DNA of 27,719 nt from Burkholderiales bacterium (GCA_026786225.1 JAJAYN010000459.1:1-27719), one strand, 5' to 3'; shown: positions 7,196-27,719, counted from the first letter of the stretch. Made by a program: numbers and translations. The notes: a model not told the origin generated them from the sequence alone.

Positions 7196-9070
7196 ATGGC
7201 GCTTCATCCAACCTTGGCGGAGATAACCCGCCGCGTGACATTGCGCAGCGAAGGCAGCCGCGCAGGCTATCTCAGGCGTGTAGAGCAGGCACGCGTTGCC
7301 GGCACATCACGTGGCCGCGTGTCCTGCACAAACCTCGCCCACGCGTTCGCCGCAGAGCCAGCCGCCAGTAAATTGGTTCTACGAGAAATTCGCGCACCCA
7401 ACATCGGCATCGTTTCTGCGTATAACGACATGCTGTCAGCGCATCAGCCTTTTGCCCGATTTCCCGAGCTCATCAAGCGTGCCGCACAGGAAGTCGGCGC
7501 GACGGCACAGTTTGCCGGTGGCGTCCCCGCCATGTGCGACGGCGTCACGCAGGGGCAGCCAGGGATGGAGCTCTCGCTGTTTTCGCGCGATGTCATTGCC
7601 ATGTCGACGGCCATCGCGCTTTCCCACGGTGTGTTCGACGCGGTACTGTGTCTTGGCGTCTGCGACAAAATCGTTCCCGGGCTATTGATCGGCGCCCTGC
7701 AGTTCGGTCACCTGCCTGCCGTCTTCGTGCCCGCCGGCCCGATGACAAGCGGCCTCTCCAACGACGACAAGGCCAGGATGCGCCAGCAGTTCGCGGAGGG
7801 CAAGCTGGATCGGGCGGCATTGCTCGAAGCGGAGAGCCGCGCTTATCACGGACCCGGTACGTGTACGTTCTACGGCACCGCCAACAGCAACCAATTCCTC
7901 ATGGAGGTCATGGGCCTGCATTTGCCCGGCGCAGCCTTTGTGACGCCCAACACGCCATTGCGCGACGCCCTGACATCTGCAGCAGCGCGACGCGTTGCAC
8001 AGATCACCCATTTAGGTGACCACTACACGCCGCTTGCCAAAGTATTGAATGAGCGCGCCATCATCAATGCCATTGTCGGTCTGCTGGCAACTGGCGGTTC
8101 GACCAACCACACCATTCACCTGGTCGCGATTGCACGAGCGGCCGGCATCATCATCAACTGGGACGACTTTGACGCGCTGTCTGCGGTTGTGCCGTTGCTC
8201 GCGCGGATCTATCCGAACGGCAGCGCGGATATCAATCATTTTCACGCGGCAGGAGGCGCAGGCTTCGTGATCCGCGAATTGCTATCGGCCGGACTGTTGC
8301 ACGACGATGTGCTCACCGTCACCGGCAAGTCGCTCAGTCACTTTACAGAGGAGCCCACGCTCAATGGTGAAATCGTCACCTGGAGGCCGGCGCCTGTATC
8401 AAGCGGAGACGACAGCGTTCTGCGCACGGCGGCAGCGCCGTTCAGTACCGACGGCGGCATGCGCGTGCTACGCGGCAATCTGGGTCGTTCGGTCATCAAG
8501 GTATCCGCGGTAAAGGCCGCGCATCGGGTGGTCGAGGCACCAGCGCTGGTGTTCGATGACCAGGACGACGTGCTGGCGAGTTTCAAGCGCGGCGAACTCC
8601 AACGCGATTTCGTGGCCGTGGTGCGATTTCAGGGGCCGAGGGCAAACGGCATGCCGGAGCTACATAAGCTCACCCCGGCGCTGGGCTCATTGCAAGATGC
8701 CGGCTTTCATGTGGCGCTCGTCACTGACGGCAGGATGTCCGGTGCGTCGGGCAAAGTGCCAGCAGCAATTCATGTTTCTCCAGAATGCCTCGCCGGTGGG
8801 CCATTGGGCAAGGTTCGCAATGGCGATATCATCCGCCTCGATGCCGATGCGGGCACACTCGAGGTCAAGGTATCGCCAGAAGAGTGGGCACAACGCGTGG
8901 TGTCAACTCCCGACCTTAGCCGGAATCAGTTTGGCATGGGCCGTGAATTGTTCCAGTCGGCGCGCGCCGCTGCGCTGACGGCGGAGGAAGGTGCGAGCAT
9001 ATTTGGCACGATTGACATACACCAATTCGAGAATTCTCCTGAATCCATACTGACCGGTACAACATCATGA
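7196..9070 (+). CDS. edd: 6-phosphogluconate dehydratase
   Basis: [21 protein letters not shown], Fe-S Cys motifs [15 protein letters not shown] and [38 protein letters not shown]. Confidence 0.96.
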
Positions 9071-9711
9071 CGACCATCCGTGAAATCATGTTCGCTAGCC
9101 CTATCATGCCGGTCATCGTTCTCGAACGCATCGACGATGCCGTGCCCTTGGCCGAGGCGCTGGTCAGCGGTGGCATCCGCGTGTTGGAAGTCACCATGCG
9201 CACGCCTGTGGCACTCGACTGCGTTCGCGCCATCCGTGCCGCCGTTCCCGACGCCATCGTCGGCGTGGGCACCATCACCAATATCGCGGACCTGAACGCC
9301 GCTCGCGCAGCAGGCGCCGCGTTTGGCGTGAGCCCCGGCACGACCGCAGAGTTGCTTGTACATGCCCATGGGTCCGGCTTTCCTTTTCTGCCTGGCGCGA
9401 TGACGCCATCAGACGTGATGCGCACGCTCGACGCCGGTTTCACCGCGATGAAACTGTTTCCGGCACGCCAGGCTGGCGGCATCGATATGCTCAAGGCACT
9501 CGGCGGCCCCTTTCCGCAAGTCCTGTTCTGTCCGACAGGCGGCATAGACGGTGAATCGGCTGCGACTTACCTCGCACTGCCGAACGTCGCGTGCGTCGGT
9601 GGCTCCTGGTTAGCGCCGGCCACGCTGATTGACAACCAGGACTGGGACGAAATAAGAAGCAGAGCGCATCAGGCGGCGTTACTTGCCAGACACCTCAACA
9701 AGCACAATTGA
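9067..9711 (+). CDS. eda: KDPG/KHG aldolase
   Basis: EVTMRTP, GVGT, VSPG, Schiff-base MKLFPA, FCPTGGI and VGGSWL. ATGA overlap with edd. Confidence 0.95.
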
Positions 9712-9960
9712 TTGGACCTAGCCCGGTTCGGCCAGGCGCGACGCCGCATTGCCGACGAACGTATGCTGCTTGATGTGTTGAAAAACTACTCTGCACTATT
9801 TGTGCGTCGCAATGAAGTCGAAGCCGCATGGCAATGGATCGACGGCATCATCGATAGCTGGCGGACCACAGGCTGAGGTCAAGCCTTACGCTGCCGTAGC
9901 TGGGGGCCAAGCGTTGTGATCGCGATGACCGAGCGCAACGGGCACTCGTTGCACGACTAA
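9712..9960 (+). pseudogene. zwf: C-terminal remnant of glucose-6-phosphate dehydrogenase
   Basis: LDL...RRRIADERMLLDVLKNYSALFVRRNEVEAAWQWIDGIIDSW, then frameshifted pieces KPYAA / SWGPS...ERNGHSLHD*. This is the recognisable G6PD C-terminus; the rest of the gene is absent. Confidence 0.82.
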
Positions 9961-10388: not shown

Positions 10389-10551
10389 ACCCGACAGTGG
10401 TGGCGAATTCGAACTTCATGAAAAACTTCAGAAAGAGGTCTGCGAATGCTGCACGCTACTGCGCTTTGGAACTGAACGCGCGCCGCTCACAGATTGCCAG
10501 CGGTTGCTTATGGCGCCAAATCGAACGATTTCATTTATTACCAAATTTTTG

Positions 10552-10579
10552 TTGACTTTCCTTTTTTTTGCATTAATAT
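10552..10579 (+). promoter_or_regulatory. Candidate sigma70 promoter of the TonB-receptor operon
   Basis: TTGACT (10552-10557), 16-bp T-rich spacer, TAATAT (10574-10579), in an AT-rich region. GAGGAG precedes ATG 10658. Confidence 0.5.
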
Positions 10580-10580
10580 C

Positions 10581-10609
10581 GCACTAAATCGTTGCACTAA
10601 ATCGTTGCA
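10581..10609 (+). repeat. Tandem 13-bp repeat, candidate LacI-family operator
   Basis: GCACTAAATCGTT occurs twice (10581-10593, 10594-10606) followed by GCA, directly downstream of the candidate -10. Confidence 0.55.
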
Positions 10610-10657
10610 GTAGATTTTACGATAGCCCTAGCCAAAAATTCATCTGAGGAGAACAAA

Positions 10658-13189
10658 ATGTCAGGTACAAAAAAACACGCAGGCGTCGGGCAGCGGCTGA
10701 CCCCAATTGCATCGGCTGTTGCTTTAGTTTTATTCGGCGCGAGTATGGCATCGCAGGCGCAGCAAGCCCCAGCGACTGAGGCCGAAAAGCTTCCGCCGAA
10801 AGCGGTTTCTCCTGCGAGTGAAAAAACCACTCAGAAAGCCACCCTACCTGCGGCGGCTGCACAACCGCAGCTGGAAGTCGTTATCGTTTCCGCGAATCGG
10901 CGTATTGAAAAACTGGAGGATGTGCCACAGTCGATCAGCGTGATCAGCAGCGAGGATATTGAGCGTAATAACGTTCGGGAATTCGAAGACCTCTCCAGAC
11001 TGGCGCCAGCGCTAAGCATCTCAACCGGCACACAAGTAGGCACGAACAGTATCAACATGCGCGGCATCGGCAGCCTATCGAACAATCTCGGTATTGAAGG
11101 CGACGTCGCGGTCATCCTCGATGACTTGCCGTTTGCACAGCCTCAGCAGGCATTCAAGGATTTGCACGACGTTGCTCGAGTTGAAGTGCTGAAAGGGCCA
11201 CAAAGCACGCTGTTTGGCAAGAGCGCCATTGCCGGCGCGGTTGTGGTCACAACTGCCCCCATCGGCAGTGGCCCATTGAGTGGCAAGGTGTCCACGTACT
11301 TGACGAGCGACCATGAATACCGCGTTGGAGCCACGGTCAGCGGCCGTATCTCAGAGCGCGTGGGCGTCCGCGTAGCTGCCAGCAAGTCCGATTTTCGCGG
11401 TTTGCTTCACAATTTGACTAACGACTCCTACACCAATGGCTCAGGCGGTGAGAACATCAACGGCAAGATCGAGTGGAACCTCGCTAACGATCTGGATGTA
11501 TCTCTCGCCGGGTTTTATAGCAACTCCAAGAGCACCGGAAATACATCCGCACTAATTTTTATGGACCCTCGCGTGGGTAGTCTCATCAGGAACAACGCCT
11601 TCCTGACCAATACAATTATTTTCCGGGACATCACGCCGGGCACCAGGAATAGGGACGTTCGCCTCGATGATGAGTCATCCCTTGCGCAAAAGGACTGGGG
11701 TGGAGCTTTGCGTGTCAATTACTTGTTTCCTGCCGGCTCGTTTCTCGCCGAACATAATTTGACCTCAATCACTGGGTATAACGGAAATGACGCTAACGAC
11801 AAGCGTGACAACGACGGCCACGAGGCAGTCATCGCACAGTACATACCACTGACCAACGCTGCCGGCGTCACGGGTACCGCTGCGTCAGGCATTAAGGAAA
11901 CCGCGAAGATCAACGGAACTTCGTATATCAAGACAATCACGCAAGAGGTGCGTCTGACCTCGCCAGACAGCGGAAATTTTCGCTATGTCGCAGGACTTTG
12001 GTACGCTAACACGGCGCTTGATCGCTATTACCTGCGCGGCATCTTCGGCATTAAGCCAACGAATTACACCAACTACGAGACCACGTCCGACAGCACAAAC
12101 GTTGCGATCTACGCCAACTCAACTTGGGAATTCATGCCAAGCCATACGTTAACCCTAGGCGGGCGTTTTAACCAGGAGACGAATGATTATTCGTTCACGA
12201 CCATCAGCGCTTTAGCGTCGACGGCTCCGGCAAATACCCCGTATACGCCCTACTTTGCTTACACAGCGCCAACAAATAAGGAGAGCGCGTTCACCGGAAA
12301 AGCTGCATACGCCTACAAAGTCACGCCCGACGCCATGGTGTACGCGAGCTATGCCACCGGGCGTAAAGGTGTAGCCTACGACATGACCAGCGGCGCCAAT
12401 AACAAAAATGTGTTTAAGTTTTTGCCTTTGGCGGCCGAAACGGCCGAAAACGTTGAACTGGGGTTGAAGGCCAACTTGCTCAACAACCGGGCAACCTTGA
12501 ACGTCGCCTTGTTCAATACGGACTTCAAGAATTACCAAGCTTCTTCCACTCAAACGTTCTCTGATGGCACTTCGGCAAGTGTTCTTTTTGGAATTGGCGG
12601 CGTTCGGACTCGCGGCGGGGAAATCGACTTCAGAGCCTTGATAACCAAAAGTCTGAAGCTGTTTGTAAGCTACGCGTACACCGAGGCGAGAGTAACGGAA
12701 TGGCAGTACGGGGCTTGTTACAGCGGCCGAACGAATTGCACAAACACCCCGCCCAACCCTGGCAACCCGGCTGCTTTGTACATCAACGGTGCCGGGTTCA
12801 TCATGCCCAACGCGCCGCGGCACAAAGGCACTCTCGGCGCCGAATACAGTGATCTATGGGGTCCGCTCAAGTTCACCTACTTTGCCCAGGCTAGCAGTCA
12901 GTCGTTCGTGTACGGCAATCTCGACCAAAATCCGGTGCACTATCGTCCTGGCATCACTCTGTTCGATACCGGCTTTTCCTTAGCCGACAGCAAGAACAAA
13001 TACAAGGTCGGGTTCAGTGTTAAGAATCTGTTCGACAAGCAATACTCGACGGGTGGTCAGGGCGGTGTCGTCGGCACCCTGTTTACGCCAACTGGCGCGG
13101 CTTCATCAGCAAACATTTTGCAACTAGGTTGGAAGCCCGCTCGTGACGCGTTCCGCTTCTACGCAGTGCGTTTTGACATGTCCTTCTGA
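10658..13189 (+). CDS. TonB-dependent receptor, probable alginate-oligosaccharide importer
   Basis: Signal peptide RLTPIASAVALVLF...AQA, TonB box LEVVIVSANRR, plug motif RVEVLKGPQSTLFGK.AIAG, SVKNLFDKQY, C-terminal Phe. The substrate is inferred from context. Confidence 0.88.
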   Translation: MSGTKKHAGVGQRLTPIASAVALVLFGASMASQAQQAPATEAEKLPPKAVSPASEKTTQKATLPAAAAQPQLEVVIVSANRRIEKLEDVPQSISVISSEDIERNNVREFEDLSRLAPALSISTGTQVGTNSINMRGIGSLSNNLGIEGDVAVILDDLPFAQPQQAFKDLHDVARVEVLKGPQSTLFGKSAIAGAVVVTTAPIGSGPLSGKVSTYLTSDHEYRVGATVSGRISERVGVRVAASKSDFRGLLHNLTNDSYTNGSGGENINGKIEWNLANDLDVSLAGFYSNSKSTGNTSALIFMDPRVGSLIRNNAFLTNTIIFRDITPGTRNRDVRLDDESSLAQKDWGGALRVNYLFPAGSFLAEHNLTSITGYNGNDANDKRDNDGHEAVIAQYIPLTNAAGVTGTAASGIKETAKINGTSYIKTITQEVRLTSPDSGNFRYVAGLWYANTALDRYYLRGIFGIKPTNYTNYETTSDSTNVAIYANSTWEFMPSHTLTLGGRFNQETNDYSFTTISALASTAPANTPYTPYFAYTAPTNKESAFTGKAAYAYKVTPDAMVYASYATGRKGVAYDMTSGANNKNVFKFLPLAAETAENVELGLKANLLNNRATLNVALFNTDFKNYQASSTQTFSDGTSASVLFGIGGVRTRGGEIDFRALITKSLKLFVSYAYTEARVTEWQYGACYSGRTNCTNTPPNPGNPAALYINGAGFIMPNAPRHKGTLGAEYSDLWGPLKFTYFAQASSQSFVYGNLDQNPVHYRPGITLFDTGFSLADSKNKYKVGFSVKNLFDKQYSTGGQGGVVGTLFTPTGAASSANILQLGWKPARDAFRFYAVRFDMSF

Positions 13190-13297
13190 TCGCTAATTGG
13201 CAAGTCGAAGTAATGTATTGATAAAGAAATCAGCGCGGCGGTTGCACTTGCTTGGTGTGCTGCGCTGCCATGCCGTTGCACGATATAAAAGGAGACT

Positions 13298-14332
13298 ATG
13301 AGCGAACCAAAAATTCAGGACGTGGCGCGTCTGGCTGGCGTGTCCCCGTCCAGCATTTCGAATTTTCTCAACAACCGGATGGAGCAAATGCGGCCGGCGA
13401 CGCAGCTCAAAATCCAGCAGGCAATTCAGGAGCTCGGCTACCGGCCAAACAATGCGGCTCGACAACTCAAGACCGGGGTTGCGTCGATGGTGGGGTTACT
13501 AGTCCCATCGCTGGCGAACCAGTACTTCGGCGCGCTCGCTTGCGCAGTGGAGATCGCCGCCGCAAAATATCACTGTCATGTCATGACCTTCAGCACCTTC
13601 AGGGATCCTGCGCGCGAGCGCGAAGTGATGGCCGATCTGATGGCGTATAACGTGCAGGGCATCATCACCGGTTCGGCATTGAACGATACCGAAAATCTGG
13701 AAGCTTTGGCGGTACGCTGTCCGGTCGTCGCTTTCGATGTTACGCGATCAAACGAAGAGCACGCGCGCATCAGCACAATTTCAATCGACAATGCCACTGC
13801 GACCTCAATGGCAGTCGAGCATCTCGTACATTTGGGACATCGATCCATCGTGCTGGTCACGCCGCCACCGCTCACGCTCAATCGCCAAGCACGGGCCAAT
13901 GGATTCAGCAAAGCAATTGCGAACGCGGGCATTACCGGCGACTTGGTGATCATCGACCCCACCGATGCACCGATTGACCCACACGGTGATACCCAGCTGT
14001 TTGCGTTGGGCCGTAGCGCGGCCGCCAAAATTATGGCGGCACCTTTTCGGCCAACGGCGGCGATTGCCATCAACGACATGATGGCAATCGGCGTTGGAGT
14101 CGGCATGAAGCATCTCGGCGTACAGATACCCAAAGACTTCTCTTTGATCGGCATCGACGACATTTTCTTCGCGGCGGCACACGATCCGCCGCTGACGACA
14201 CTGAGGCAGCCGATTCAGGCGATGGCAAATGCGGCTGTCACCCGCATTCTGGCACCAACCGGCATACCGGGCGACGAGGTTTTTGCACCCGAATTGATCG
14301 TACGCGGAACGACTGCGGCACCAGGGAAATGA
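13298..14332 (+). CDS. LacI-family transcriptional regulator (position equivalent to AlgO of Sphingomonas sp. A1)
   Basis: KIQDVARLAGVSPSSIS HTH, LGYRPNNAARQL hinge, NDMMAIG, IGIDD and PPLTTLRQP. AAAGGAG ribosome-binding site. Confidence 0.92.
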   Translation: MSEPKIQDVARLAGVSPSSISNFLNNRMEQMRPATQLKIQQAIQELGYRPNNAARQLKTGVASMVGLLVPSLANQYFGALACAVEIAAAKYHCHVMTFSTFRDPAREREVMADLMAYNVQGIITGSALNDTENLEALAVRCPVVAFDVTRSNEEHARISTISIDNATATSMAVEHLVHLGHRSIVLVTPPPLTLNRQARANGFSKAIANAGITGDLVIIDPTDAPIDPHGDTQLFALGRSAAAKIMAAPFRPTAAIAINDMMAIGVGVGMKHLGVQIPKDFSLIGIDDIFFAAAHDPPLTTLRQPIQAMANAAVTRILAPTGIPGDEVFAPELIVRGTTAAPGK

Positions 14333-14363
14333 CAAATCACTTACTTTGAAAAGATACGAAAAA

Positions 14364-15119
14364 ATGGAATTATTGGGAAGAAATGCGCTGGTCATGGGCG
14401 GCGCGTCGGGTATCGGCAAGGCCACTTCACTGGCGTTGGCAAAAGCAGGTTCCAACGTAGCCCTGACGTACTGGACAAGTGACGCTGAGGCGGCTGAAGT
14501 GGTGGCCGAAATCCGCAAGCTCGGTCGACTCGCGTGCGCGATCAAGGCTGATCTGACCAATAGCGAGGTGGCGGAAAAGGTATTTGCGGAGGCCGAAGGT
14601 GCGGTCGGCGATGTGGATACCCTGTTTGCAAATATTGGCGGCCTGATTCAACGCTCCCGTGTGGTCGATATGCCGCTGTCATTGTGGAATGATGCGATGG
14701 CACTTAACCTGACCAGCACTTTCCTGATCTGCCAGGCGGCTCTGAAGCGTATGGAGCCGCGCAAACGGGGCGTCATCGTCACCATGTCCTCGCTTGCCGC
14801 GTTCGACGGCGGTGGTCCAGGTTCCGCGCACTATGCGGCGGCCAAAGCGGCGGTCGCCACTTTCACCCGCGCGCTCGCCAAAGAGGTCGGGCCGCTGGGC
14901 ATCCGCGTCAACGGTGTATCACCAGGGCTGATCGCGACGCGCTTTCACGACCAATTCAATACACTGGCAAATCGCCAGGCCATCGCGGAGCGGACGCCGG
15001 CGCGCCGTGAAGGCTTGCCTGATGATGTCGCAAACGCTGTCGTTTTCCTCGCCTCTGATCGAGCAGCATTTTTGGCCGGCGAAATTCTCCAGGTCAATGG
15101 TGGCCTGGGCATGTTTTGA
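14364..15119 (+). CDS. SDR oxidoreductase, probable 4-deoxy-L-erythro-5-hexoseulose uronate (DEH) reductase
   Basis: GGASGIG, SSLAAFDGGGPGSAHYAAAK (the GGGPG..Y...K signature of A1-R/A1-R'-type DEH reductases as I recall them), VSPG..TRFHD. Located inside the alginate cluster. Confidence 0.75.
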   Translation: MELLGRNALVMGGASGIGKATSLALAKAGSNVALTYWTSDAEAAEVVAEIRKLGRLACAIKADLTNSEVAEKVFAEAEGAVGDVDTLFANIGGLIQRSRVVDMPLSLWNDAMALNLTSTFLICQAALKRMEPRKRGVIVTMSSLAAFDGGGPGSAHYAAAKAAVATFTRALAKEVGPLGIRVNGVSPGLIATRFHDQFNTLANRQAIAERTPARREGLPDDVANAVVFLASDRAAFLAGEILQVNGGLGMF

Positions 15120-15283
15120 TGGGATGCGCAAAACCACTATGGCCAAGAATGACGCGAGGGGTCACGGTTTTTGCATCGCTACGATTGAGCTACCGGCAAA
15201 GACGATGCACCACACAGTGCGCATAACCCGTCGGCATCGAGACACTGGTGCAGCTGTCTTCAATGGCATGTCAAGGAGCCGAA

Positions 15284-16393
15284 ATGGCAGCCAACGTTAG
15301 CTTACGCAACGTCGTCAAGCGATTCGGACAGACTATCGTCGTTAACGACGTCGATCTCGATATTCGCGCTGGAGAATTCCTGGTCTTGGTCGGCCCCTCG
15401 GGCTGCGGGAAGTCCACGACCCTGCGTTTGGTTGCCGGTCTGGAGCAGGTATCGAGCGGCACCATATCCATCGATGGCCGCGAAGTCAACAATCTCGCTC
15501 CGAAGGATCGTGGCGTAGCGATGGTCTTCCAAAACTACGCGCTATACCCGCACCTGAGCGTACGCGACAACATCTCATTTGGTTTGCGCTTGAGCAGCAT
15601 GAAGCGTGCAGATATAGCTGCCGCCGTTGCGCGCGCTGCCGCCATCCTGGAGTTGGAGCCGTTACTCGATAGGCAGCCCGCAGAACTGTCAGGAGGTCAG
15701 CGTCAACGGGTTGCAATGGGTCGCGCCATCGTGCGCAACCCTGCCGTCTTTCTGTTCGATGAGCCGCTGTCGAATCTGGATGCCAAGTTACGCACCCAGA
15801 TGCGAGTGGAGATCAAGCGCTTGCACGCGCGCCTAGGCAATACCGTGATGTACGTGACGCACGATCAGCTTGAGGCCATGACATTGGCTGACCGCATCGT
15901 TGTGATGCGCAATGGCATCATCGAACAAATTGGGTCACCCGAGCAGTTGTTCGATTCGCCAGCATCGGCATTTGTCGCAGCTTTTATTGGCTCTCCTCCA
16001 ATGAACCTGATCCCTTGCACGGTTGAACAGTCTGGTGATGCGACGTCGGTCAGGCTGGGCGCGGACAATCAATTGTGCCTACCCCTTGCTGCACGCGCAG
16101 CATTGATTGGTGCAGGCGAGTTGTTATTTGGTGCGCGCCCCGAAGACATCCATCTCCAGCCGCGCGAGAGCACCCAACCCCTGTCGGGAGTGGTTGAACT
16201 GGTCGAACCCCTGGGTGGCGAATCATTGGTGCATGTACGCATTGGCGGCGAACTGATTGTGGTCCGCGCGGAAGGCCGCCAGCGGGTGCAATCGGATGGG
16301 CCCATAAAACTTCATGTAGACACGGGGCGCATCTATCTGTTCGGCCGCAAAGACGACCGTTGCGTCTATCCGGCACCACAGGTGGTCGCATGA
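15284..16393 (+). CDS. ABC transporter ATP-binding subunit (MalK/AlgS type)
   Basis: Walker A GPSGCGKST, LSGGQRQRVAMGR, FLFDEPLSNLDAKLR and YVTHDQ. AAGGAG ribosome-binding site before ATG 15284. Confidence 0.93.
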   Translation: MAANVSLRNVVKRFGQTIVVNDVDLDIRAGEFLVLVGPSGCGKSTTLRLVAGLEQVSSGTISIDGREVNNLAPKDRGVAMVFQNYALYPHLSVRDNISFGLRLSSMKRADIAAAVARAAAILELEPLLDRQPAELSGGQRQRVAMGRAIVRNPAVFLFDEPLSNLDAKLRTQMRVEIKRLHARLGNTVMYVTHDQLEAMTLADRIVVMRNGIIEQIGSPEQLFDSPASAFVAAFIGSPPMNLIPCTVEQSGDATSVRLGADNQLCLPLAARAALIGAGELLFGARPEDIHLQPRESTQPLSGVVELVEPLGGESLVHVRIGGELIVVRAEGRQRVQSDGPIKLHVDTGRIYLFGRKDDRCVYPAPQVVA

Positions 16394-17328
16394 GCGCGGC
16401 CAGACAATCCTCGATATTGAAGGACAGTAGTCTGCTGCAAGACATACGCCGTGACTGGATGCTTTATGCAATGCTACTTCCCGCCGTAATCTGGTTCGCC
16501 GTGTTCATGTACCAGCCGATGGCAGGATTACAAATTGCATTCAAACAATACAGCGTCTTCAAGGGCATGCAGGGCAGCCCCTGGGTGGGCTTTGACCACT
16601 TCGTTACTTTGTTTCAAAGCGATTTTTTTTGGCGTGCCATCTTAAACACGTTGATGATTAGCTTTTACTCCCTCGTGCTCGCATCGCCAGTGCCTATCAT
16701 CCTCGCGCTGATGATCAACGAGGTGCAGTCCACCGGATTTCGCAAGACGGTGCAAACGGCAGTCTACCTGCCGCACTTCGTTTCATTCGTAATCGTTGCG
16801 GGCATTGTGATCGCCTTGCTTTCGCCGGGTAATGGCCTGGTGAACAACGCCTTGGAGGCATTGGGCTTGGATCGCACCTATTTCCTGACGCGCCCCGAAT
16901 GGTTTCGCACCATTTACATTGGATCGAGTATTTGGAAGGAAGCTGGCTTTGACTCAATCATTTACCTGGCCGCCATCATGGGTATCAATCCGGCTTTGTA
17001 TGAATCGGCGCAAATCGATGGTGCCACCCGTTGGCAAATGATCACGCGCATCACGCTACCAAGCATCTTGCCAACCATCGCCGTATTGTTCGTTATACGC
17101 CTCGGTAATGTCCTCGAAGTGGGCTACGAATACATCATTCTTCTCTACCAGCCAACGACCTACGACACTGCCGATGTCATCAGTACGTATATCTACCGTG
17201 TAGGTATCCAGGGGGCACGCTACGACATTGCGGCGGCGGCCGGCGTGTTCAACGCGGTCGTTGCCTTGATACTGGTTCTGGTCGCCAACAAGCTCAGCCG
17301 GCATTTCACGCGCACGGGTGTTTTTTGA
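16390..17328 (+). CDS. ABC permease (LplB/AlgM1 type)
   Basis: WVGFDHF, YLPHFVS, YLAAIMGINPALYESAQIDGATRWQ (EAA loop), ADVISTYIYR. ATGA overlap with the ATPase gene. Confidence 0.92.
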   Translation: MSAARQSSILKDSSLLQDIRRDWMLYAMLLPAVIWFAVFMYQPMAGLQIAFKQYSVFKGMQGSPWVGFDHFVTLFQSDFFWRAILNTLMISFYSLVLASPVPIILALMINEVQSTGFRKTVQTAVYLPHFVSFVIVAGIVIALLSPGNGLVNNALEALGLDRTYFLTRPEWFRTIYIGSSIWKEAGFDSIIYLAAIMGINPALYESAQIDGATRWQMITRITLPSILPTIAVLFVIRLGNVLEVGYEYIILLYQPTTYDTADVISTYIYRVGIQGARYDIAAAAGVFNAVVALILVLVANKLSRHFTRTGVF

Positions 17329-17349
17329 ATTCGGCAGGGGAGTCTTACC

Positions 17350-18231
17350 ATGATGTCTAGACCGATCTATTCTGTCGGTGATCGCTGGTTCGGGCGTGTC
17401 AACGCAATATTGCTGACCATATTTGCACTTTGCGCGCTTTACCCCATCGTCTATGTCACATCGCTATCCATGAGTTCGGGCGAGGCAGGGTCGAGCGGGC
17501 AAGTGTGGTTGTGGCCGGTTGAGTGGACTCTGGCTGCGCACCAACATGTCGTGAAGAATTCATTATTTTGGATTTCATACGCCAACACTTTTTTCTATAC
17601 CGTGACCGGCACATTGACTAGTTTGGCACTTGTCATTCCGGCAGCATACGCACTCTCGAAAGCACGGTTGCGTGGTCGCCGCGTGATTGGCTTCTTCATC
17701 GCGTTCACCATGTGGTTTCATGCCGGCATGATTCCGTTCTACCTCAACCTGCGTGATCTGGACCTGCTCGATTCGCGCTGGGGAATTGTGATTGCATTCG
17801 CATTAAATGCCTTTAACGTCATCCTCATGCGCAACTTCTTCGAGTCTGTATCTCCAACCTTTGAAGAGGCGGCGCGCATAGATGGCGCAAATGATTTCCA
17901 GATCCTGTGGAAGGTCTACATTCCCTTGGCCAAGCCGGCCATTGCGACTGTCGCATTGTTGTGCGCGATTGCACGGTGGAACGGCTATTTTTGGTCCATG
18001 GTGCTGCTCAAGACGGAAGACAAGATTCCACTTCAAGTGTTTCTGAAGAAGACCGTCATCGAGGTAAATATTACCGAGTCAGTTGCAGGCGCAATTTCGC
18101 AGCAACCTTACTCGCTCGAGACCATCACTGGCGCCATCATCGTCCTGTCGATCATTCCGGTCCTGATCGTCTATCCAATGATTCAGAAGTACTTCACCAA
18201 AGGTGTGACGCTAGGTGGAATCAAAGAATGA
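17350..18231 (+). CDS. ABC permease (AlgM2 type)
   Basis: AYALSK, FTMWFHAGMIPFYL, FEEAARIDGANDFQIL (EAA loop), WNGYFW, YPMIQKYFTKGVTLGGIKE. Confidence 0.92.
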   Translation: MMSRPIYSVGDRWFGRVNAILLTIFALCALYPIVYVTSLSMSSGEAGSSGQVWLWPVEWTLAAHQHVVKNSLFWISYANTFFYTVTGTLTSLALVIPAAYALSKARLRGRRVIGFFIAFTMWFHAGMIPFYLNLRDLDLLDSRWGIVIAFALNAFNVILMRNFFESVSPTFEEAARIDGANDFQILWKVYIPLAKPAIATVALLCAIARWNGYFWSMVLLKTEDKIPLQVFLKKTVIEVNITESVAGAISQQPYSLETITGAIIVLSIIPVLIVYPMIQKYFTKGVTLGGIKE

Positions 18232-19838
18232 AGCGCGCCTTGCAACCTGGCCGGCGTATCGCCGAACCCCCATCAGTGGTGAAGCGGCTCGCCGCTTATT
18301 CGATGACGTCGGTGGTAACTGGCATTTTTGCGGCCAGCATGCCCGCGTTCTCGCAAGTCGAACGTCCACACACGACCAACCCGGTGGAACTCACGATCCA
18401 TATGCATTTCCGTGACAAGTATGTCTGGAATGAAGACTGGCCGGTCGCCAAGGAGCTGACACGTCTGACCAATATCAAGCTGATTGGCACAGCCAGCAAA
18501 GTCGCCACCAAGAGCCAGGAGCAGTTCAATTTAATGGTGGCCTCAGGAAAACTCCCCGATATTGTCGCCGGGGACAATCTCAAAGATGATTTCATCCGCC
18601 TCGGCATGGAAGGTGGTTTGCAGCCGTTGAACAAGCTGATCGACGACCATGCTCCGCATATCAAGGCCTATTTTCAGAGCAATCCGCAGATCGAGCAGGC
18701 CATCAAGGCCCCAGACGGCAACATCTACTACATCCCCTATATTCCCGACGGAACCGTGTCGCGTGGTTGGTGGATTCGTCAGGATTGGCTGGACAAGCTC
18801 AATCTGAAACAGCCGCAAAATGTTGACGAGCTATATATCGTCTTAAAGGCGTTTCGCGACAGGGATCCCAATGGCAACGGCAAGAAGGACGAGATTCCGT
18901 ATTTCAACGCTCAGCCCAGTGAGGTATACAGGCTAGTTCTGTTGTGGGGCGCGAGGTCGTCGGGATCCAACGCGGCCATGGATTTCATGATTGAAGATGG
19001 CAAGGTCGTACATCCCTTCGCGCAGGAGCGCTTTAAAACTGGCATAAAGAATGTCGCTAAATGGTACGCCGAGGGTTTGATTGACAAGGAAATATTTACC
19101 CGCAAAGCCCGCGCCCGCGAACAATTATTCAGTGCAAATCGTGGCGGCATGACTCACGACTGGTTCGGCAGCACGAGCACCTACAACCAGCCAAACGCCA
19201 TCCCCGCGAAAGTCAAAGGCTTCAACCTGGTGCCCATTGCGCCGCCGGCGGACATCAATGGTAATCGTTATGAAGAAGACTCGCGGAGGCTTGTCATGCC
19301 GGACGGTTGGGCCATGACGATCCGCAACAAACGGCCGGTTGACACCATCAAGTTGTTCGACTTTTACTTTAGCCCGGCCGGCAGGAGGCTGTCGAACTTC
19401 GGTGTCGAGGGCCAACAGTACATCATGAAAGACGGAAGGCCGACGTTCACGGAAAAATTCTTGAGTTCACCCATACCGGCGAACAGCAAATTGTGGGATA
19501 TAGGCGCACAGATCACGATCGGTTTTGTGCAGGACTATGAGTACGAAAGACAGGTGACCTTCCCCGAAGGAAAAGCAGGGCGTGACTTGTACATGAAAGA
19601 AAAGTACCTCATTTCCCAATTTCCGGGCGTCAATATGACGATCGCGGAACGCACGATCTACGATAAGTACTGGCCGGACCTTGTGGTCTACCTGGACGAG
19701 ATGGCACAGAACTGGGTGCTCGGAACCAAAGATGTGGACAAGACCTGGGATGCATACCAAGCGCAACTCAAGCGCAATGGTCTGCACAAGGTGCTGGCCG
19801 TAATGCAAAAAGCCTACGATCGTCAGTACGGCAAATGA
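18228..19838 (+). CDS. algQ: Alginate-binding periplasmic solute-binding protein (AlgQ1/AlgQ2-like); start ATG 18228, not 17907
   Basis: LTIHMHFRDKYVW.EDWPVA, SQEQFNLM.ASG.LPDIV.GDNLKD, FTRKARARE, GGMTHDWF.ST, QDYEYERQ and MQKAYDRQY closely match Sphingomonas sp. A1 AlgQ sequences as I recall them. ATGA overlap with the upstream permease. Confidence 0.87.
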   Translation: MKRALQPGRRIAEPPSVVKRLAAYSMTSVVTGIFAASMPAFSQVERPHTTNPVELTIHMHFRDKYVWNEDWPVAKELTRLTNIKLIGTASKVATKSQEQFNLMVASGKLPDIVAGDNLKDDFIRLGMEGGLQPLNKLIDDHAPHIKAYFQSNPQIEQAIKAPDGNIYYIPYIPDGTVSRGWWIRQDWLDKLNLKQPQNVDELYIVLKAFRDRDPNGNGKKDEIPYFNAQPSEVYRLVLLWGARSSGSNAAMDFMIEDGKVVHPFAQERFKTGIKNVAKWYAEGLIDKEIFTRKARAREQLFSANRGGMTHDWFGSTSTYNQPNAIPAKVKGFNLVPIAPPADINGNRYEEDSRRLVMPDGWAMTIRNKRPVDTIKLFDFYFSPAGRRLSNFGVEGQQYIMKDGRPTFTEKFLSSPIPANSKLWDIGAQITIGFVQDYEYERQVTFPEGKAGRDLYMKEKYLISQFPGVNMTIAERTIYDKYWPDLVVYLDEMAQNWVLGTKDVDKTWDAYQAQLKRNGLHKVLAVMQKAYDRQYGK

Positions 19839-22327: not shown

Positions 22328-23773
22328 ATGCAAATCCGTTTGTCGTTTCTACTGGCGCTTGTGTCCAGCGCTGCTTGTGTATTTGCACAGCAGCCGCCAA
22401 AGGGCGTTACCGAGCCACATTTGGGGGCGGGATTGCGCAATCCCGACGGCTCCGCCCGCCCAGTTCCGCCGCCGCACAAAACTACGAAAAGAATCCTCGA
22501 CGTCACGCGATTCGGTGCAGATCCAATCGATAGTGCCCACGATGATCGCCTGTCCATCGAGGCTGCCCTGAATGAAGCAAAGGCAGGCGATGAAGTCTAC
22601 TTTCCCAATGGTGTCTACAACCTCAACAGCAACTCAACGAAAAACCCGGGTGCCAACATTCTGCTCAAGAGCGGTGTCAACTTGCGTGGTGAGTCTGAAG
22701 CCGGCGTCAAACTTATCAGCAACTATGACGGTGGACCCGGAAAATTCAATTTTGCAATCCTCAGGGGCGTTGATGCGAACGACATTACCGTCTCCAGGAT
22801 GACTCTCACGTCAACATGGAATCGTAAATTCTCAACGAACCCACGCGAGATGAACCCTGATCGCGGCGGTCCCCTATATGGCATTGCCATCGACGGTAAC
22901 GCGGGCAAAAACGAGCGCCTTACTTTTGAACATCTGACCGTTGAGCGTTTCGCGCGGATGGGGATTCGCCTGGGCAAAGGCACATTTGATTCCGTGATTC
23001 GATACTGTACAGCCCTCAACGCAACAGACATTGCCGGCGGTGGTAGTGGTTACGGCTTCGTGATTCAAGGGCAGACACATCAGGACAACGACGTTAACCC
23101 GTTCCTGGGCACCAACAACGACACTGCTTACAATGTCATTGAGCATTCCAAAGCTATCGGACCCTACATGCGGCACGGGGCGTTGATTCAATTCTGGGCG
23201 CACAACAACGCGATTCGCCACAATGTCTTCTCGCGAATAGTCTATGACGCCATCGACTTGCACGGCGAGGACGAATACCTCAATGAGATTCACGACAACG
23301 TTGTCACTGAGGTAACGCAGGGCGCGGGCATCGGGATCGGCAATTCCGGTGCTGGGCATGACAAAAGCGGACCCTGGAATTGGATTCATCACAACACAGT
23401 CACCAACGCAAAGGTTGGACTGACTGCCGAATATGGCACGGTCGCAAACGTAATTGAGGACAATGTTTTCCAAAAGTCGGAAAACTACGATGAGGCCTAT
23501 GGCATGAACCTGGGCTCTATCAAGAATTTCATCATTCGCCGCAACAGCATCATCAACAATTCGTCGAAGGGATTCATCGGCATCCGCCTTGTGCGCAACC
23601 GTGCGGAAGGAAGTGAACCCTCCGGCGTCGTCTCAAATACGCGTTTCGAAAACAACATCATCACTGGTAACAAAGGCGCTGGCGCACGTGCCGTGGTGAT
23701 CGTAGAGCAAGGTAACGGCAACGTCTGGACTGGAAATATCATCAAGGACAACGCGGATAACACCGCGCCTTGA
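22328..23773 (+). CDS. Secreted right-handed beta-helix protein (Pectate_lyase_3-like N-terminus), function unknown
   Basis: Signal peptide MQIRLSFLLALVSSAACVFA, DVTRFGA...DD..SIEAAL..AKAGDEVYFPNGVY, L.SGVNLRGE, then Asn/Ile/Gly-rich coils (IRHNVF, IHDNVV, IHHNTV, IEDNVF, IRRNSI, FENNII, WTGNII). GGAG precedes ATG 22328. Confidence 0.82.
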   Translation: MQIRLSFLLALVSSAACVFAQQPPKGVTEPHLGAGLRNPDGSARPVPPPHKTTKRILDVTRFGADPIDSAHDDRLSIEAALNEAKAGDEVYFPNGVYNLNSNSTKNPGANILLKSGVNLRGESEAGVKLISNYDGGPGKFNFAILRGVDANDITVSRMTLTSTWNRKFSTNPREMNPDRGGPLYGIAIDGNAGKNERLTFEHLTVERFARMGIRLGKGTFDSVIRYCTALNATDIAGGGSGYGFVIQGQTHQDNDVNPFLGTNNDTAYNVIEHSKAIGPYMRHGALIQFWAHNNAIRHNVFSRIVYDAIDLHGEDEYLNEIHDNVVTEVTQGAGIGIGNSGAGHDKSGPWNWIHHNTVTNAKVGLTAEYGTVANVIEDNVFQKSENYDEAYGMNLGSIKNFIIRRNSIINNSSKGFIGIRLVRNRAEGSEPSGVVSNTRFENNIITGNKGAGARAVVIVEQGNGNVWTGNIIKDNADNTAP

Positions 23774-24026: not shown

Positions 24027-25415
24027 TTGAAGCAGTTGATCCGGCCCGATGTGGTCCGACTCACCACGCCGATCCTGGTTGAACAAATCTGCATCAACCT
24101 GTTGAGCATTGTCAGCACCATCATGGCAGCACGGCTGGGGCCGGAGGCGGTGTCAGCAGTTGCGATGGTGGAGTCGATCAATGCGGTGATCGGTTCGGTA
24201 TTTTCGGCGCTTGGTGTCGGGGCCACTGTGGTGGTGGCGCAACTCTTAGGGCGGGGCGAGAAGACGACCGCCGCGCGCGCGACGTTGCAGGCACTCATTT
24301 CCGCGGGGCTGATCGCAACGGTGTTTGCGCTGTTATTGATCACCTTCCGCGTGCCAGTGCTGGGGTACCTCTTTCCGGGGGTAGACGCGGATGTGATGCG
24401 TAACATGCAGGTCTACCTCGCCGTTACCGCGCTGTCTTTCCCACTTAGTGCGTTGACGATTGTCGGCTGTGGCGCCATTCGCGGAGCAGGCGACACCGCA
24501 GCGACGATGAAGGTCAACGTTCTTGTCAACATCGTCAACGTAATCCTTAGCTACTCCCTTATATACGGCGTCGATCTGCCGGGCACCTCCGGGGAAAAAT
24601 TGGTCCCGGCATTCGGACTTTTAGGCGCGGCGTACGCGATCGTCTTCACCCGGCTTATCGGCGTGGGTTACCTGTTTTTCGCCGTGTTGTTGAAAGGTGA
24701 CTTCCTACCGCCACGTGCGTTGTGCCGCTATCGTTTCGATACCCACCTGCAAGCGGCCATCTTCTCGGTCGGCATCCCGGTGAGCATGGAGTCAATGATT
24801 TTCAATGGCGGCAAGTTGATCGTGCAGATCTATATTGCTGGCATGGGAACGGCGGCGATTGCCGCTAACTTCATCGCTTTCTCAATTGCCAGTTTTATCA
24901 ACATACCAGGTGCAGCACTGGCGGTCGCGCTCACCACGCTGGTCGCAACAGACGCGGGACGCGGTGACTTCAGCGCCGCCCGACGAACGATTTGGCATGT
25001 CATGCGAGTCGGCTGGATCGCGATGGCAATCGTGGGAACCATCTTCTTTCCGCTCGCCCCATGGCTTGTCGCCCAGTACTCACAGGACCCTGCAGTGATT
25101 GAACTTGGAGCACTGTTGGTCCGCATGAACTGCCTCTTCCTTGTCTGTTACCCCACAACATTCATTCTGCCCAATGGCTTCAGAGGCGCGGGTGATGCCC
25201 GATTTACAGTCCTAACCACTTTCACGGGCATGTTGATTTTCAGGCTCGTGCTAGGTTACGTTTTGGGGGTGACATTGCAGTTCGGCATTGTAGGCGTCTG
25301 GTGCGGCGTCATTGCAGACTGGTTCGTCCGCAGCCTGATGTACATCGTGCGCCTGCGCGGCACGAAATGGCAACGCACCGGACTTGCGATTCCCCCCGGT
25401 GAAAAGGAGGTTTGA
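24027..25415 (+). CDS. MATE-family transporter
   Basis: About 12 hydrophobic segments in two repeats; PILVEQ, RLGPEAVSAV, RGAGDT..TM.VN, N..LSY.LIYG, GFRGAGDARF. TTG start preceded by GGAG. Confidence 0.88.
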   Translation: MKQLIRPDVVRLTTPILVEQICINLLSIVSTIMAARLGPEAVSAVAMVESINAVIGSVFSALGVGATVVVAQLLGRGEKTTAARATLQALISAGLIATVFALLLITFRVPVLGYLFPGVDADVMRNMQVYLAVTALSFPLSALTIVGCGAIRGAGDTAATMKVNVLVNIVNVILSYSLIYGVDLPGTSGEKLVPAFGLLGAAYAIVFTRLIGVGYLFFAVLLKGDFLPPRALCRYRFDTHLQAAIFSVGIPVSMESMIFNGGKLIVQIYIAGMGTAAIAANFIAFSIASFINIPGAALAVALTTLVATDAGRGDFSAARRTIWHVMRVGWIAMAIVGTIFFPLAPWLVAQYSQDPAVIELGALLVRMNCLFLVCYPTTFILPNGFRGAGDARFTVLTTFTGMLIFRLVLGYVLGVTLQFGIVGVWCGVIADWFVRSLMYIVRLRGTKWQRTGLAIPPGEKEV

Positions 25416-25460: not shown

Positions 25461-26465
25461 TCATGGGCCGACAGTTTGGGCATTGCTGGCAGACAAGTCT
25501 TTCTCAAGCTGCGCGCGAGTGGGGAGGCCGTCACAATCGCCGGGAAATTGGACAACACGCGCACCGATGAAATTGCCGCGTGCCGCAGCGGCGGCGAGGG
25601 GAAGGCCTTCGAGCAAGGCACTTATCACGCCCACTGCAAAACCGTCTCCGGCACCTACCGTGTCTACTACTTTTGCCACGGCCAGGCCAGGTGCAGTGCC
25701 TGTTCCCTGCTCGTCAGCATAGTAGGCACCTTCAACACCGAGCTTTACCACGACTTGCCTCGCGCCGCGCTCAAGGTAGAAGTCAGCGATCTCGGGCGCA
25801 TTTTGGCGCCCGGTCATCAGACGGCCTTCTGCCAGACCCGGCATGACCAGATCCGCATTGGCAGCCAAGCGATTCAACGTCTCAATCATTACCTGCGTAG
25901 AAGGCCACAAGCGCGGGCGCAAGTTTGGATCGAACGACACCCTGCTGCCGGCTTGCTTGAATTGCGCGGCAAGCGCGAAAGTGAGATCGAGTGCGCTTGT
26001 CGAAAGGGCAGGCAGGATGCCGGTGAGGTGTAAGTGGCGCGCTTGCGCGAAGTCACCAACAGGCTTATCGGCACAACTCAGGTGACTCGCAGCCGAGCCT
26101 TGACGGAAATACTCAACACTAGGATCCGCGCCATTGAGCTCGAGTGATTTCAGCATGAAACCGGTGCGGTGGTCGGCATCCACGACAACCTGCCGAAGGT
26201 CGATGCGCTCTGCCGCCATGAAGTCCAGTAGCGCGCTGCCCAGGCTGTCCTTTCCCAAGCGGCTGACGTAACCGATCCGAAAGCCCAAGCGACTCAAGCC
26301 CACGGCCACGTTCAGCTCGGCGCCCGCGGTTGCGCGTTGGAAGTCGCGCACCTCGGACAAGGCACCGGACTGCCGGGCGATGAACAAAGCCATTGCTTCG
26401 CCTACGGTTACGACATCGGGCACGTTACCGCCATCTGCGGCAGTATCAACGGGTACATTACTCAT
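25461..26465 (-). CDS. kdgK: PfkB-family sugar-acid kinase, probable 2-keto-3-deoxygluconate kinase (KguK-like branch); start ATG 26465
   Basis: GEAMALF, AGAELNVAVGLSRLG, FDPNLRPRLW, VVKLG..GA and VDTVGAGDGF. Start overlaps the PL7 stop (ATGAGTAA). Confidence 0.7.
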   Translation of the reverse strand: MSNVPVDTAADGGNVPDVVTVGEAMALFIARQSGALSEVRDFQRATAGAELNVAVGLSRLGFRIGYVSRLGKDSLGSALLDFMAAERIDLRQVVVDADHRTGFMLKSLELNGADPSVEYFRQGSAASHLSCADKPVGDFAQARHLHLTGILPALSTSALDLTFALAAQFKQAGSRVSFDPNLRPRLWPSTQVMIETLNRLAANADLVMPGLAEGRLMTGRQNAPEIADFYLERGARQVVVKLGVEGAYYADEQGTGTAPGLAVAKVVDTVGAGDGFAVGVISALLEGLPLAAAAARGNFIGARVVQFPGDCDGLPTRAQLEKDLSASNAQTVGP

Positions 26466-27252
26466 GGCGCACCGCAAGATCATGAATGCGCACTGCGGCG
26501 ACGCTGCGCGCGTCGCCCTTGCTGTTGTCCTGCAAGTAGTTACCCGCCTTGAAGTAGTAGCGCAGGGATTTCCACGCCGGGTCGCGTGCGACGAAGTCAT
26601 CGATATAGGTCTTGCCATTGACCGTCATCAGCAAGCGCCCGTGCTCAACTTTGAGCGAGCCTTCATACGTGCTGCCCAAAGGAAAATTGCCGTCAACGTT
26701 ATAGAGAATGTCTTTGCCGCCTTTGGCTTCGGCCTTGACGAGAAACTGCAGGGCGCTGTCCTTCCATTGCGCCTTTACCAGGGGTGGCGCATTGCTGCCG
26801 TCGGTGTTGACACCGTGGATCTGGAACACGATTACCCGGACCCCAGGAGGAACGCTCACCAGCTCTTGACGCAGCGTCATCAGGTGCGTGCCATCGGTCG
26901 TCCAGTTGTCGGCCTTATTGGCCGGATTGATCATTTCACGCAATTCACTGCGCGGATACTTGGCATTGGCGGTACTACCACCGTCGCTCTTCGCCGTGAA
27001 GAGAAGGCTACCGCTCGACTCGACCCGAAAACTGTCGTTCTGGTATCCCTTCGAGAGCCTGTCGGGCTGCACTTCACTTGCCATGGCATCGGGCAGCGTA
27101 AGTTTCCAGTGGCGAAGATCGATGCGCTGTCTATTTCCAGTTGCGGGTTCGAGTACAGACAACGCCAGACTGTCGCTGGTGCGCAGTGCTTGCGGGACGC
27201 CGGAACAGCCGATCAGCGCAGCGCAGGTGACCCATATTGCGGTGCGTTTCAT
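26458..27252 (-). CDS. PL7 alginate lyase, predicted lipoprotein; start ATG 27252
   Basis: All three PL7 signatures are present (RSELRE, QIH, YFKAGNYLQ). The N-terminus MKRTAIWVTCAALIG-C has a lipobox with Cys16. Confidence 0.9.
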   Translation of the reverse strand: MKRTAIWVTCAALIGCSGVPQALRTSDSLALSVLEPATGNRQRIDLRHWKLTLPDAMASEVQPDRLSKGYQNDSFRVESSGSLLFTAKSDGGSTANAKYPRSELREMINPANKADNWTTDGTHLMTLRQELVSVPPGVRVIVFQIHGVNTDGSNAPPLVKAQWKDSALQFLVKAEAKGGKDILYNVDGNFPLGSTYEGSLKVEHGRLLMTVNGKTYIDDFVARDPAWKSLRYYFKAGNYLQDNSKGDARSVAAVRIHDLAVRHE

Positions 27253-27440
27253 ATTGGGCGGGCAAGAAAAGTTGGCGTAGTTGAGTTTCGTTGATTGGCG
27301 GCTCCGGGATGCTCGCCATTTTGTTTTTCCAAATTGTTCATCATTGATATCATTTCGCAAACGGCTGCTGTCGGACTGGGCGCAAGCTGACAAGTATAAA
27401 CTGGCAGTGTGCAACTGCGCATATGAGCCTGTCCTGTCAA

Positions 27441-27719
27441 CGGGTAAAACTGTTCGGCAAGGCACATCGCGTGACGCGAAGTTGCTCGAGAAGCTTGAGG
27501 ATATTGTTGGTCTGTATATGTCGCCGCCGGAGAACGCGCTGGTGTTGTGCTGCGACGAGAAGAGTCAGGTGCAAGCGCTGGATCGCACACACCCCGGCCT
27601 GCCGTTGAAGAAGGGGCGCGCAGCCACCATGACGCATGACGACAAGTGCAACGGCACGACCACGTTGTTTGCTGCGCTCAAAGTGCTCAATGGTGAAATC
27701 ATTGCCCAGTGTCAGAAGC
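27441..27719 (+). mobile_element. IS630-family transposase remnant (5'-truncated, runs off the window)
   Basis: RVKLF, then a frameshift to [69 protein letters not shown]. The canonical THDYKRHG is degraded and the HTH part is absent. Confidence 0.88.

Follow-up and report, generated by a model that had tools for sequence, protein, structure and literature searches.

A candidate outer-membrane receptor linked to a single-AlgQ ABC importer in a predicted alginate locus of a Burkholderiales bacterium

The 27,719-nucleotide contig JAJAYN010000459.1 of a Burkholderiales bacterium (GCA_026786225.1) of freshwater/soil type, hereafter the window, carries a gene for a TonB-dependent transporter (TBDT), referred to as the receptor, upstream of genes for an AlgQ-type ATP-binding cassette (ABC) importer. 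Judged from its sequence, we consider it likely that this block is an alginate uptake and catabolism operon, in which the receptor would be the outer-membrane entry step for the AlgQ/AlgM1M2S importer. The window is an entire 27.7-kb contig of a 3.4-Mb metagenome-assembled genome (MAG) that is 86% complete; genes were called as open reading frames (ORFs), and domains were assigned by Pfam. All genes from the receptor to AlgQ lie on the plus strand within 10658–19838, separated by intergenic gaps of at most 128 nt, and base 19838 is the AlgQ stop. ORFs, domains and both end coordinates agree with the original prediction, which had described a co-oriented block joining a TonB receptor to an ABC importer.

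The receptor gene (10658–13189, plus strand) encodes an 843-aa protein with the plug and 22-strand-type β-barrel of TonB-dependent transporters, since Pfam Plug matches residues 86–194 (1e-20) and TonB_dep_Rec_b-barrel matches residues 326–791 (1.5e-35). The N-terminus consists of a signal peptide, a 35-aa linker rich in Ala, Pro and Lys and, just before the plug, the stretch EVVIVSA, which by eye resembles a TonB box and is kept as xVVVSA across an alignment of 24 receptor sequences. The signal peptide exists only when the gene starts at ATG 10658; the 814-aa version proposed by the gene caller lacks one. Additionally, three TonB_C genes above cut-off are present in the genome, which would serve energy coupling. 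Traits of the SusC/SusD type of Bacteroidota were not seen, as the protein has only the Plug and barrel domains and the next gene encodes a LacI regulator. Pfam detected no FecA-type STN signalling domain in the receptor, and all 18 of its matches to curated NCBIfam siderophore, haem and B12 models are far below cut-off, the best iron-type model being TIGR01783 with 129.8 bits against a cut-off of 223.5. No Fur box was found upstream of the receptor, where the best match (10 of 19 positions) equals background, and no riboswitch was found.

The receptor promoter bears a conserved operator-like element. Specifically, a sigma-70-like promoter recognized by consensus match only (TTGACT, 16 nt, TAATAT; 10552–10579, plus strand) is followed by a pair of operator-like sites, CTAAATCGTTGCAC and CTAAATCGTTGCAG, each 14 bp long and CG-centred, which overlap with a 13-bp period (10584–10610, plus strand) and are predicted to be LacI sites. 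This pair represents the only strong operator matches in the window, whose scan revealed no second strong operator ahead of algS or the PL7 lyase gene. The motif [CG]TAAATCG[TA]T[GA]CAG occurs in one to four copies within ~320 nt upstream of the receptor gene at all nine orthologous loci compared, which comprise the window, the metagenomic locus L082, the locus of genome G164 (L125) and six Massilia/Duganella-family genomes. The copies often form 13-bp-spaced pairs, and the motif is nearly absent elsewhere in those 20-kb loci; the TTGACT promoter context likewise precedes the operator in L082 and L125. A perfect inverted repeat, AAATCG-AA-CGATTT (10518–10531), lies just 5' of the -35 box and repeats the left half-site of the operator with another spacing; it may be a third regulator site. 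A weak and speculative operator-like site, TTGCATCGCTACGA (15171–15184, plus strand), is located in the gap between the genes for the short-chain dehydrogenase/reductase (SDR) and AlgS; it differs at three outer positions from CTGCATCGCTACAG, a site upstream of the G164 receptor, and does not fit the main operator consensus within 3 mismatches.

The predicted binder of the receptor-promoter operator is encoded by the next gene (13298–14332, plus strand; Pfam LacI and Peripla_BP_3). Its product has the HTH_LacI and periplasmic-binding-like domains of the LacI family, and the promoter carries the CG-centred 14-bp pseudo-palindrome typical of such regulators. It shares 67–80% identity with a tight orthogroup, beyond which the next proteins fall to 48%. 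Of the 8 orthologous loci fetched, 7 have the LacI gene directly 3' of the receptor, and contig matching in the protein database places 28 receptor homologues on the same contig as a LacI orthologue. Taken together, the conserved operator and adjacent LacI gene, the lack of a Fur box, riboswitch or STN domain in the searches above and the low scores of the iron models lead us to predict that the receptor is controlled by the locus's own sugar-type LacI repressor. Iron regulation, which the original prediction had named as an outcome that would speak against it, is not indicated as far as the sequence can tell. At another locus (L129, genome G1319), a 54% receptor orthologue has no LacI, SDR or lyase neighbours and has kept operator motifs upstream (three within 3 mismatches, two of these within 1), which suggests that this receptor is controlled in trans by a regulator encoded elsewhere.

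The importer half of the block closely resembles that of Sphingomonas sp. A1. It comprises the MalK-type ABC ATPase AlgS (15284–16393; Pfam ABC_tran, OB_MalK and TOBE_2), the permeases AlgM1 (~16390–17328) and AlgM2 (17350–18231), and AlgQ (18228–19838), the sole periplasmic alginate-binding protein, which has a signal peptide; all four genes are on the plus strand, and the AlgS ORF opens at 15248 with its likely ATG at 15284. The best solved-structure matches of all four proteins are AlgM1, AlgM2, AlgS and AlgQ1/AlgQ2 of A1, and in the case of AlgM1, AlgM2 and AlgQ these lie far ahead of the next matches. AlgM1 matches 4TQU_M with E 7e-150 (runner-up 2e-13), AlgM2 matches 4TQU_N with E 1e-135, and AlgS matches 4TQU_S with E 4e-139 and 467 bits in an alignment from ORF residue 13, other MalK-type ATPases following at ~350 bits. 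AlgQ matches AlgQ1/AlgQ2 with E ~1e-220 and shows 62% identity with AlgQ2 across 509 residues, from which we infer that it binds alginate or its oligomers. With orthologues of AlgS, AlgM1, AlgM2 and AlgQ in the gene order of A1, the system belongs to the AlgQ-AlgM1M2SS (CUT1) importers.

Only one AlgQ copy was found in the 86%-complete genome, as the original prediction had stated for the block. The pair of binding proteins that characterizes the A1-type pit system is therefore not seen there, and the protein branches outside the AlgQ1/AlgQ2 duplication. In the AlgQ tree it falls into a single-copy clade with 100% support, together with proteins of Piscinibacter sakaiensis (74% identity), a cluster including Rhodocyclaceae MAG proteins and the receptor-carrying contigs described below. 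The sister clade holds A1 AlgQ1/AlgQ2, Uliginosibacterium and Chania, with the duplication inside it. As judged from this tree, one AlgQ is the ordinary state and two copies are a peculiarity of A1, Uliginosibacterium and Chania, so the single copy, though confirmed, is the norm rather than special to the hybrid arrangement. A1 AlgQ1 (BAB03317.1) and AlgQ2 (PDB 4TQU chain Q), listed as P0249/P0252, are identical to Rhodocyclaceae MAG proteins MGC3965493/4 from a 1.1-Mb contig, and they group with Uliginosibacterium sp. sgz301328 at 90% or more as well; the identity with the MAG proteins reflects either a very recent transfer or a questionable source taxonomy.

The receptor–AlgQ pairing recurs beyond the window. 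The receptor homologues fall into tiers of identity, of which the 63–84% tier comprises 22 protein clusters that derive without exception from metagenomes or MAGs. Nine further contigs, of 25238, 18534, 15586, 255941, 38898, 14956, 26257, 66303 and 27416 bases, carry a 64–84% receptor together with a close AlgQ, co-location being deduced from identical base counts and data source of the receptor and AlgQ entries rather than from the contig sequences; they make up 9 of the 15 contigs of at least 12 kb in this tier. A receptor/AlgQ match on a contig of 8247 bases was dropped, as the data sources differ and the number is small. In the receptor tree, the window and all nine AlgQ-paired receptors belong to one clade of 23 (support 100, stem 0.41), which is sister to a clade of Massilia/Duganella receptors linked to a major facilitator superfamily (MFS) transporter. 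On this evidence the pairing is common to a clade of at least ten loci and not unique to the window, and the combination of a TBDT with an AlgQ-ABC importer is apparently common in uncultured Burkholderiales.

The more distant receptor homologues are linked to a different inner-membrane step. In the 52–55% tier (Massilia/Duganella type), 7 of 8 fetched loci are arranged as TBDT–LacI–SDR–PL15-like lyase–KdgK, continued by MFS and a GDSL esterase in the two Pfam-annotated loci (L082 and L131), and an ABC importer was found in none of the eight. Identities to the window proteins are 73–79% for LacI, 77–83% for SDR and 63–70% for KdgK, and the lyase is only distantly PL15-like (E 2e-16). At 44% identity and below (Duganella, Massilia, Roseateles and others), alginate genes adjoin 0 of 20 receptor loci among the matches listed. 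A locus search over genome contigs listed only matches of at most 40% identity, none beside alginate genes, and a scan of metagenomes yielded one useful locus, L082. The original prediction would have been contradicted by homologues unlinked to alginate genes; instead, receptor orthologues adjoin uronate or alginate genes or share contigs with AlgQ. In the complete genome G164, the receptor orthologue (L125 8526–10885) was matched in two pieces in different frames, with 46% and 53% identity, and is probably a frameshifted or broken gene.

The ABC half is rare among the genomes sampled, where matches of E 1e-60 or better were counted. AlgQ turned up in none of the 400 genomes sampled from the order, in 2 of the 400 sampled from the phylum and in none of 301 from the family to which Sphingomonas sp. 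MMS24-J13, whose genome contains L020, belongs. Receptor-less AlgS-M1-M2-Q-PL15-SDR loci are present in two genomes of one family from the phylum sample (L123 and L124), and plasmids of Devosia, Falsirhodobacter and Limimaricola carry them too, always with one AlgQ; the search of plasmids for AlgQ loci gave alphaproteobacterial and Gram-positive ones only. The window's SDR is 43% identical to the SDR 3' of PL15 in L123 (genome G767). The TBDT–LacI–SDR head is common to the MFS-type loci and the AlgS-M1-M2-Q-PL15 body to the A1-type loci, so that the locus is, by its sequence relationships, a mosaic of the two. The term "hybrid" used in the original prediction is hence apt, each half having separate relatives in the MFS-type loci and in the receptor-less A1, Rhizobiales and Rhodobacterales loci.

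Assembled from these parts, the proposed pathway would run as a relay from the cell surface to central metabolism. A probable lipoprotein alginate lyase of family PL7 (26458–27252, minus strand; Pfam Alginate_lyase2 4e-49; lipobox LIGC) and an exported β-helix protein (22328–23773, plus strand; weak NosD Pfam match; signal peptide), a putative lyase, would cleave alginate either extracellularly or within the periplasm, and the TonB-energized receptor would carry the oligomers into the periplasm. AlgQ would then capture them, and AlgM1M2S2 would pump them to the cytoplasm. [quoted passage not shown] The SDR (14346–15119, plus strand; Pfam adh_short_C2 2e-58), to which a function is assigned from context and for which KduD-like NCBIfam models score below cut-off, would reduce DEH to 2-keto-3-deoxygluconate (KDG). 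KdgK (2-keto-3-deoxygluconate kinase; 25461–26465, minus strand; Pfam PfkB 1e-59) and Eda (KDPG aldolase, acting on 2-keto-3-deoxy-6-phosphogluconate; 9067–9711, plus strand; Pfam Aldolase 1e-70), the last pathway step, would complete the route. LacI would bind the tandem operator over the receptor promoter, making the receptor answer to sugar and not to iron, and the whole receptor clade would have been inherited with the ABC importer. The placement of signal peptides, present in the receptor, AlgQ, PL7 and the β-helix protein and absent from PL15, fits such a relay. The sequences themselves show which genes are present, their homologies, the conservation of the operator motif and the recurring pairing; that the receptor transports oligomers, that LacI binds the operator and that the genes are co-transcribed, as well as the oligomer size, we infer. 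The original prediction had proposed the receptor as a candidate outer-membrane channel feeding AlgQ, and this role gains support from the operator, the linkage, the recurrence and the lack of iron-type signs.

Several observations weigh against this assignment. A terminator-like hairpin (15088–15109) lies at the SDR stop, and, as no strong operator was seen ahead of algS either, it indicates that the ABC genes may be a separate transcription unit. Piscinibacter sakaiensis encodes the 74% AlgQ mentioned above, yet no receptor from its 5.6-Mb contig is among the best 120 receptor matches. AlgQ loci of Rhizobiales and Rhodobacterales likewise have no receptor, which indicates that the importer does not need a receptor of this type. 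Over ten pairs, the distances of receptor and AlgQ correlate only in part (Mantel r 0.40, p 0.02), a correlation that to this extent also speaks for the pairing, and the contig of 25238 bases shares 84% identity with the window in the receptor but only 71% in AlgQ; as read from these comparisons, the two modules have partly discordant histories and have evidently changed partners repeatedly. The indirect basis of the nine co-locations belongs on the same side.

The receptor and the ABC importer might accordingly be neighbours that work independently, with AlgQ fed by porins or other routes and the pairing due to island co-transfer. The receptor-free operation of the ABC–PL15 module in Rhizobiales and Rhodobacterales, the pairing of the receptor module with an MFS transporter elsewhere, the possible terminator after the SDR and the discordant histories all favour this view, as does the location of the locus in what is probably an ssrA island, which the other same-genus genomes searched did not show (receptor in 0 of 4, AlgQ in 0 of 5). 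We nevertheless regard it as unlikely, because the pairing persists on at least nine more contigs with receptors diverged to 64% despite module reshuffling, both modules act on the same substrate, and anionic oligomers need an outer-membrane route to reach a periplasmic binding protein. The receptor could also be an iron-related transporter, for siderophores or ferric-alginate chelates, instead of serving carbon uptake via AlgQ. Its best solved-structure and NCBIfam matches are haem and siderophore receptors, albeit weak ones, source databases name its homologues "iron complex outer membrane receptor", and ferric-alginate transport has been proposed for the alginate-induced TBDTs p1–p4 of A1 (PMC9751261). 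These database labels are generic automatic names, however, and the curated iron and B12 models stay far under their cut-offs (for example, 130 bits vs 223). The receptor has neither an upstream Fur-box-like site nor a FecA-type signalling domain, its promoter bears the conserved LacI-type operator, and the neighbours of its orthologues are always sugar-acid catabolic genes, all of which makes an iron role very improbable.

The substrate itself might be a polyuronide other than alginate from which the same unsaturated monomer arises, for which glucuronan, pectate-like polymers and a bacterial exopolysaccharide are examples. DEH is not specific to alginate lyases and is also made by other uronate lyases; the MFS-type sister loci have a lyase with no more than a distant likeness to PL15, and the AlgQ family includes glycosaminoglycan binders (5GUB-type matches). 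Against this stand the identity of AlgQ to AlgQ2, the close match of PL15 to Atu3025 and the presence of a PL7 protein with the Alginate_lyase2 domain, and we see hardly any likelihood of a substrate other than alginate. We thus favour alginate uptake through the receptor and AlgQ. A stronger version of this proposal holds that the receptor clade and the AlgQ importer have become adapted to each other and form a dedicated relay, by direct hand-over or by passage of much longer chains than MFS-linked receptors take; this is conceivable, but we think it doubtful.

Among known systems, three alginate uptake designs are listed in a review, namely SusC/TBDT with MFS, porin with symporter, and pit with AlgQ-ABC (PMC8286568). 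A described TBDT plus AlgQ-ABC locus was not found in the literature searched, which is no proof of absence; the present combination is a fourth one, a recurrent and apparently undescribed variant of known alginate systems. Its novelty is qualified by A1, which has alginate-induced TBDTs p1–p4 for which ferric-alginate transport was suggested (PMC9751261), so that the notion of AlgQ cooperating with a TBDT is not entirely new. The A1 pit system shares the algS-algM1-algM2-algQ order with the window and supplies the best matches for the four parts, and its cluster is controlled by AlgO, a repressor acting like LacI (PMC9751261), as the window has a LacI-family repressor. It has AlgQ1 and AlgQ2 and cytoplasmic lyases, whereas the single AlgQ of the window branches outside that duplication. 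The A1-type pit is defined by morphological and biochemical traits, namely a pit at the cell surface, the alginate-binding flagellins p5/p6 and import of polymer that has not been degraded. Descriptions of the A1 cluster list no TBDT and assume this pit and its flagellin-like proteins at the surface, while the window block is led by the receptor; the export of the window's PL7 and β-helix proteins points to import of oligomers, not of polymer.

The Agrobacterium fabrum Atu3019–3026 type and the Devosia, Falsirhodobacter and Limimaricola loci resemble the window in having a single AlgQ and the AlgS-M1-M2-Q-PL15-SDR set, often with a MATE gene nearby. These Agrobacterium-type, Rhizobiales and Rhodobacterales loci have no TBDT and a GntR instead of a LacI regulator, and their proteins are 47–59% identical to those of the window. 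The Massilia/Duganella TBDT-LacI-SDR-lyase-KdgK-MFS-GDSL unit shares with the window an orthologous receptor (52–55% identity), LacI (75–79%) and SDR (79–83%) and the same operator motif; it uses an MFS inner-membrane step and the distant PL15-like lyase, whereas the window has the AlgQ ABC importer, a true PL15 and no MFS gene in the block. Among cultured Burkholderiales, Hydrogenophaga sp. UMI-18 reportedly has an alginate-assimilating gene cluster, described by Yamaguchi et al. in 2019 (J Biosci Bioeng 128:203). Its ABC-transporter protein BBH51080.1 belongs to the 90% cluster of P0141, a protein outside the sequence set of the AlgQ tree that is 65% identical to the window AlgQ, and no receptor from UMI-18 contigs is among the best 120 receptor matches. 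The UMI-18 cluster is said to include KDPG aldolase (PMC7479843). The three-step logic of the proposed relay equals that of siderophore and B12 uptake, from which the window differs in substrate class, in its CUT1 sugar-type importer and in LacI-type regulation instead of Fur or a riboswitch. Those systems (FhuA-FhuDBC, BtuB-BtuFCD) combine a TonB-dependent receptor with a periplasmic binding protein, followed by an ABC importer.

The remaining genes of the window frame this block. RpiR (minus strand), Edd and Eda occupy the upstream side of the receptor. A 3' remnant of zwf, 50 codons long (9724–9876; Pfam G6PD_C positions 226–267 of 296, E 3.5e-9), lies just 3' of eda and ~780 nt 5' of the receptor gene, and this scar may be the left junction of the alginate block with the Entner-Doudoroff cluster. 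On the other side, PL7 and KdgK are on the minus strand, convergent with the plus-strand block; the PL7 ORF as listed is overlong, its likely start at 27252 giving a lipoprotein signal, and KdgK overlaps the PL7 stop by ~8 nt. An open frame (27281–27718, plus strand) without a Pfam match runs off the contig end and by eye looks like a transposase fragment. The only secondary carrier there is a MATE protein (24027–25415, plus strand). A MATE gene also stands beside AlgQ-PL15 on the Falsirhodobacter algicola and Limimaricola variabilis plasmids (L127 3007–4347 and L128 21064–22428), and the window's copy may be a recurrent companion of the pathway. A GDSL/SGNH esterase ends the Massilia/Duganella-type TBDT-MFS unit (L082 17266–19203, L131 12136–12885) and is also found 3' of the SDR in the Devosia locus (L126 16726–17892). 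Its role may be the deacetylation of O-acetylated bacterial alginate, and this would give a clue to what the natural substrate is in soil and fresh water.

The outer-membrane step of AlgQ-type import has long been unclear, and the locus offers a simple, genetically tractable candidate for it. Receptors that are orthologous and share their repressor and operator, yet are combined with either an MFS or an ABC partner, also constitute a natural experiment in which the effect of the partner on affinity or oligomer length can be tested, and the ten genes form a compact cassette for engineering alginate use. If the dedicated relay were true, it would supply the missing outer-membrane part of AlgQ-type "macromolecule" import without a pit, and the long stem between ABC- and MFS-linked receptors (52–55% identity, compared with 75–83% for LacI and SDR) would represent a change of specificity and not mere drift.

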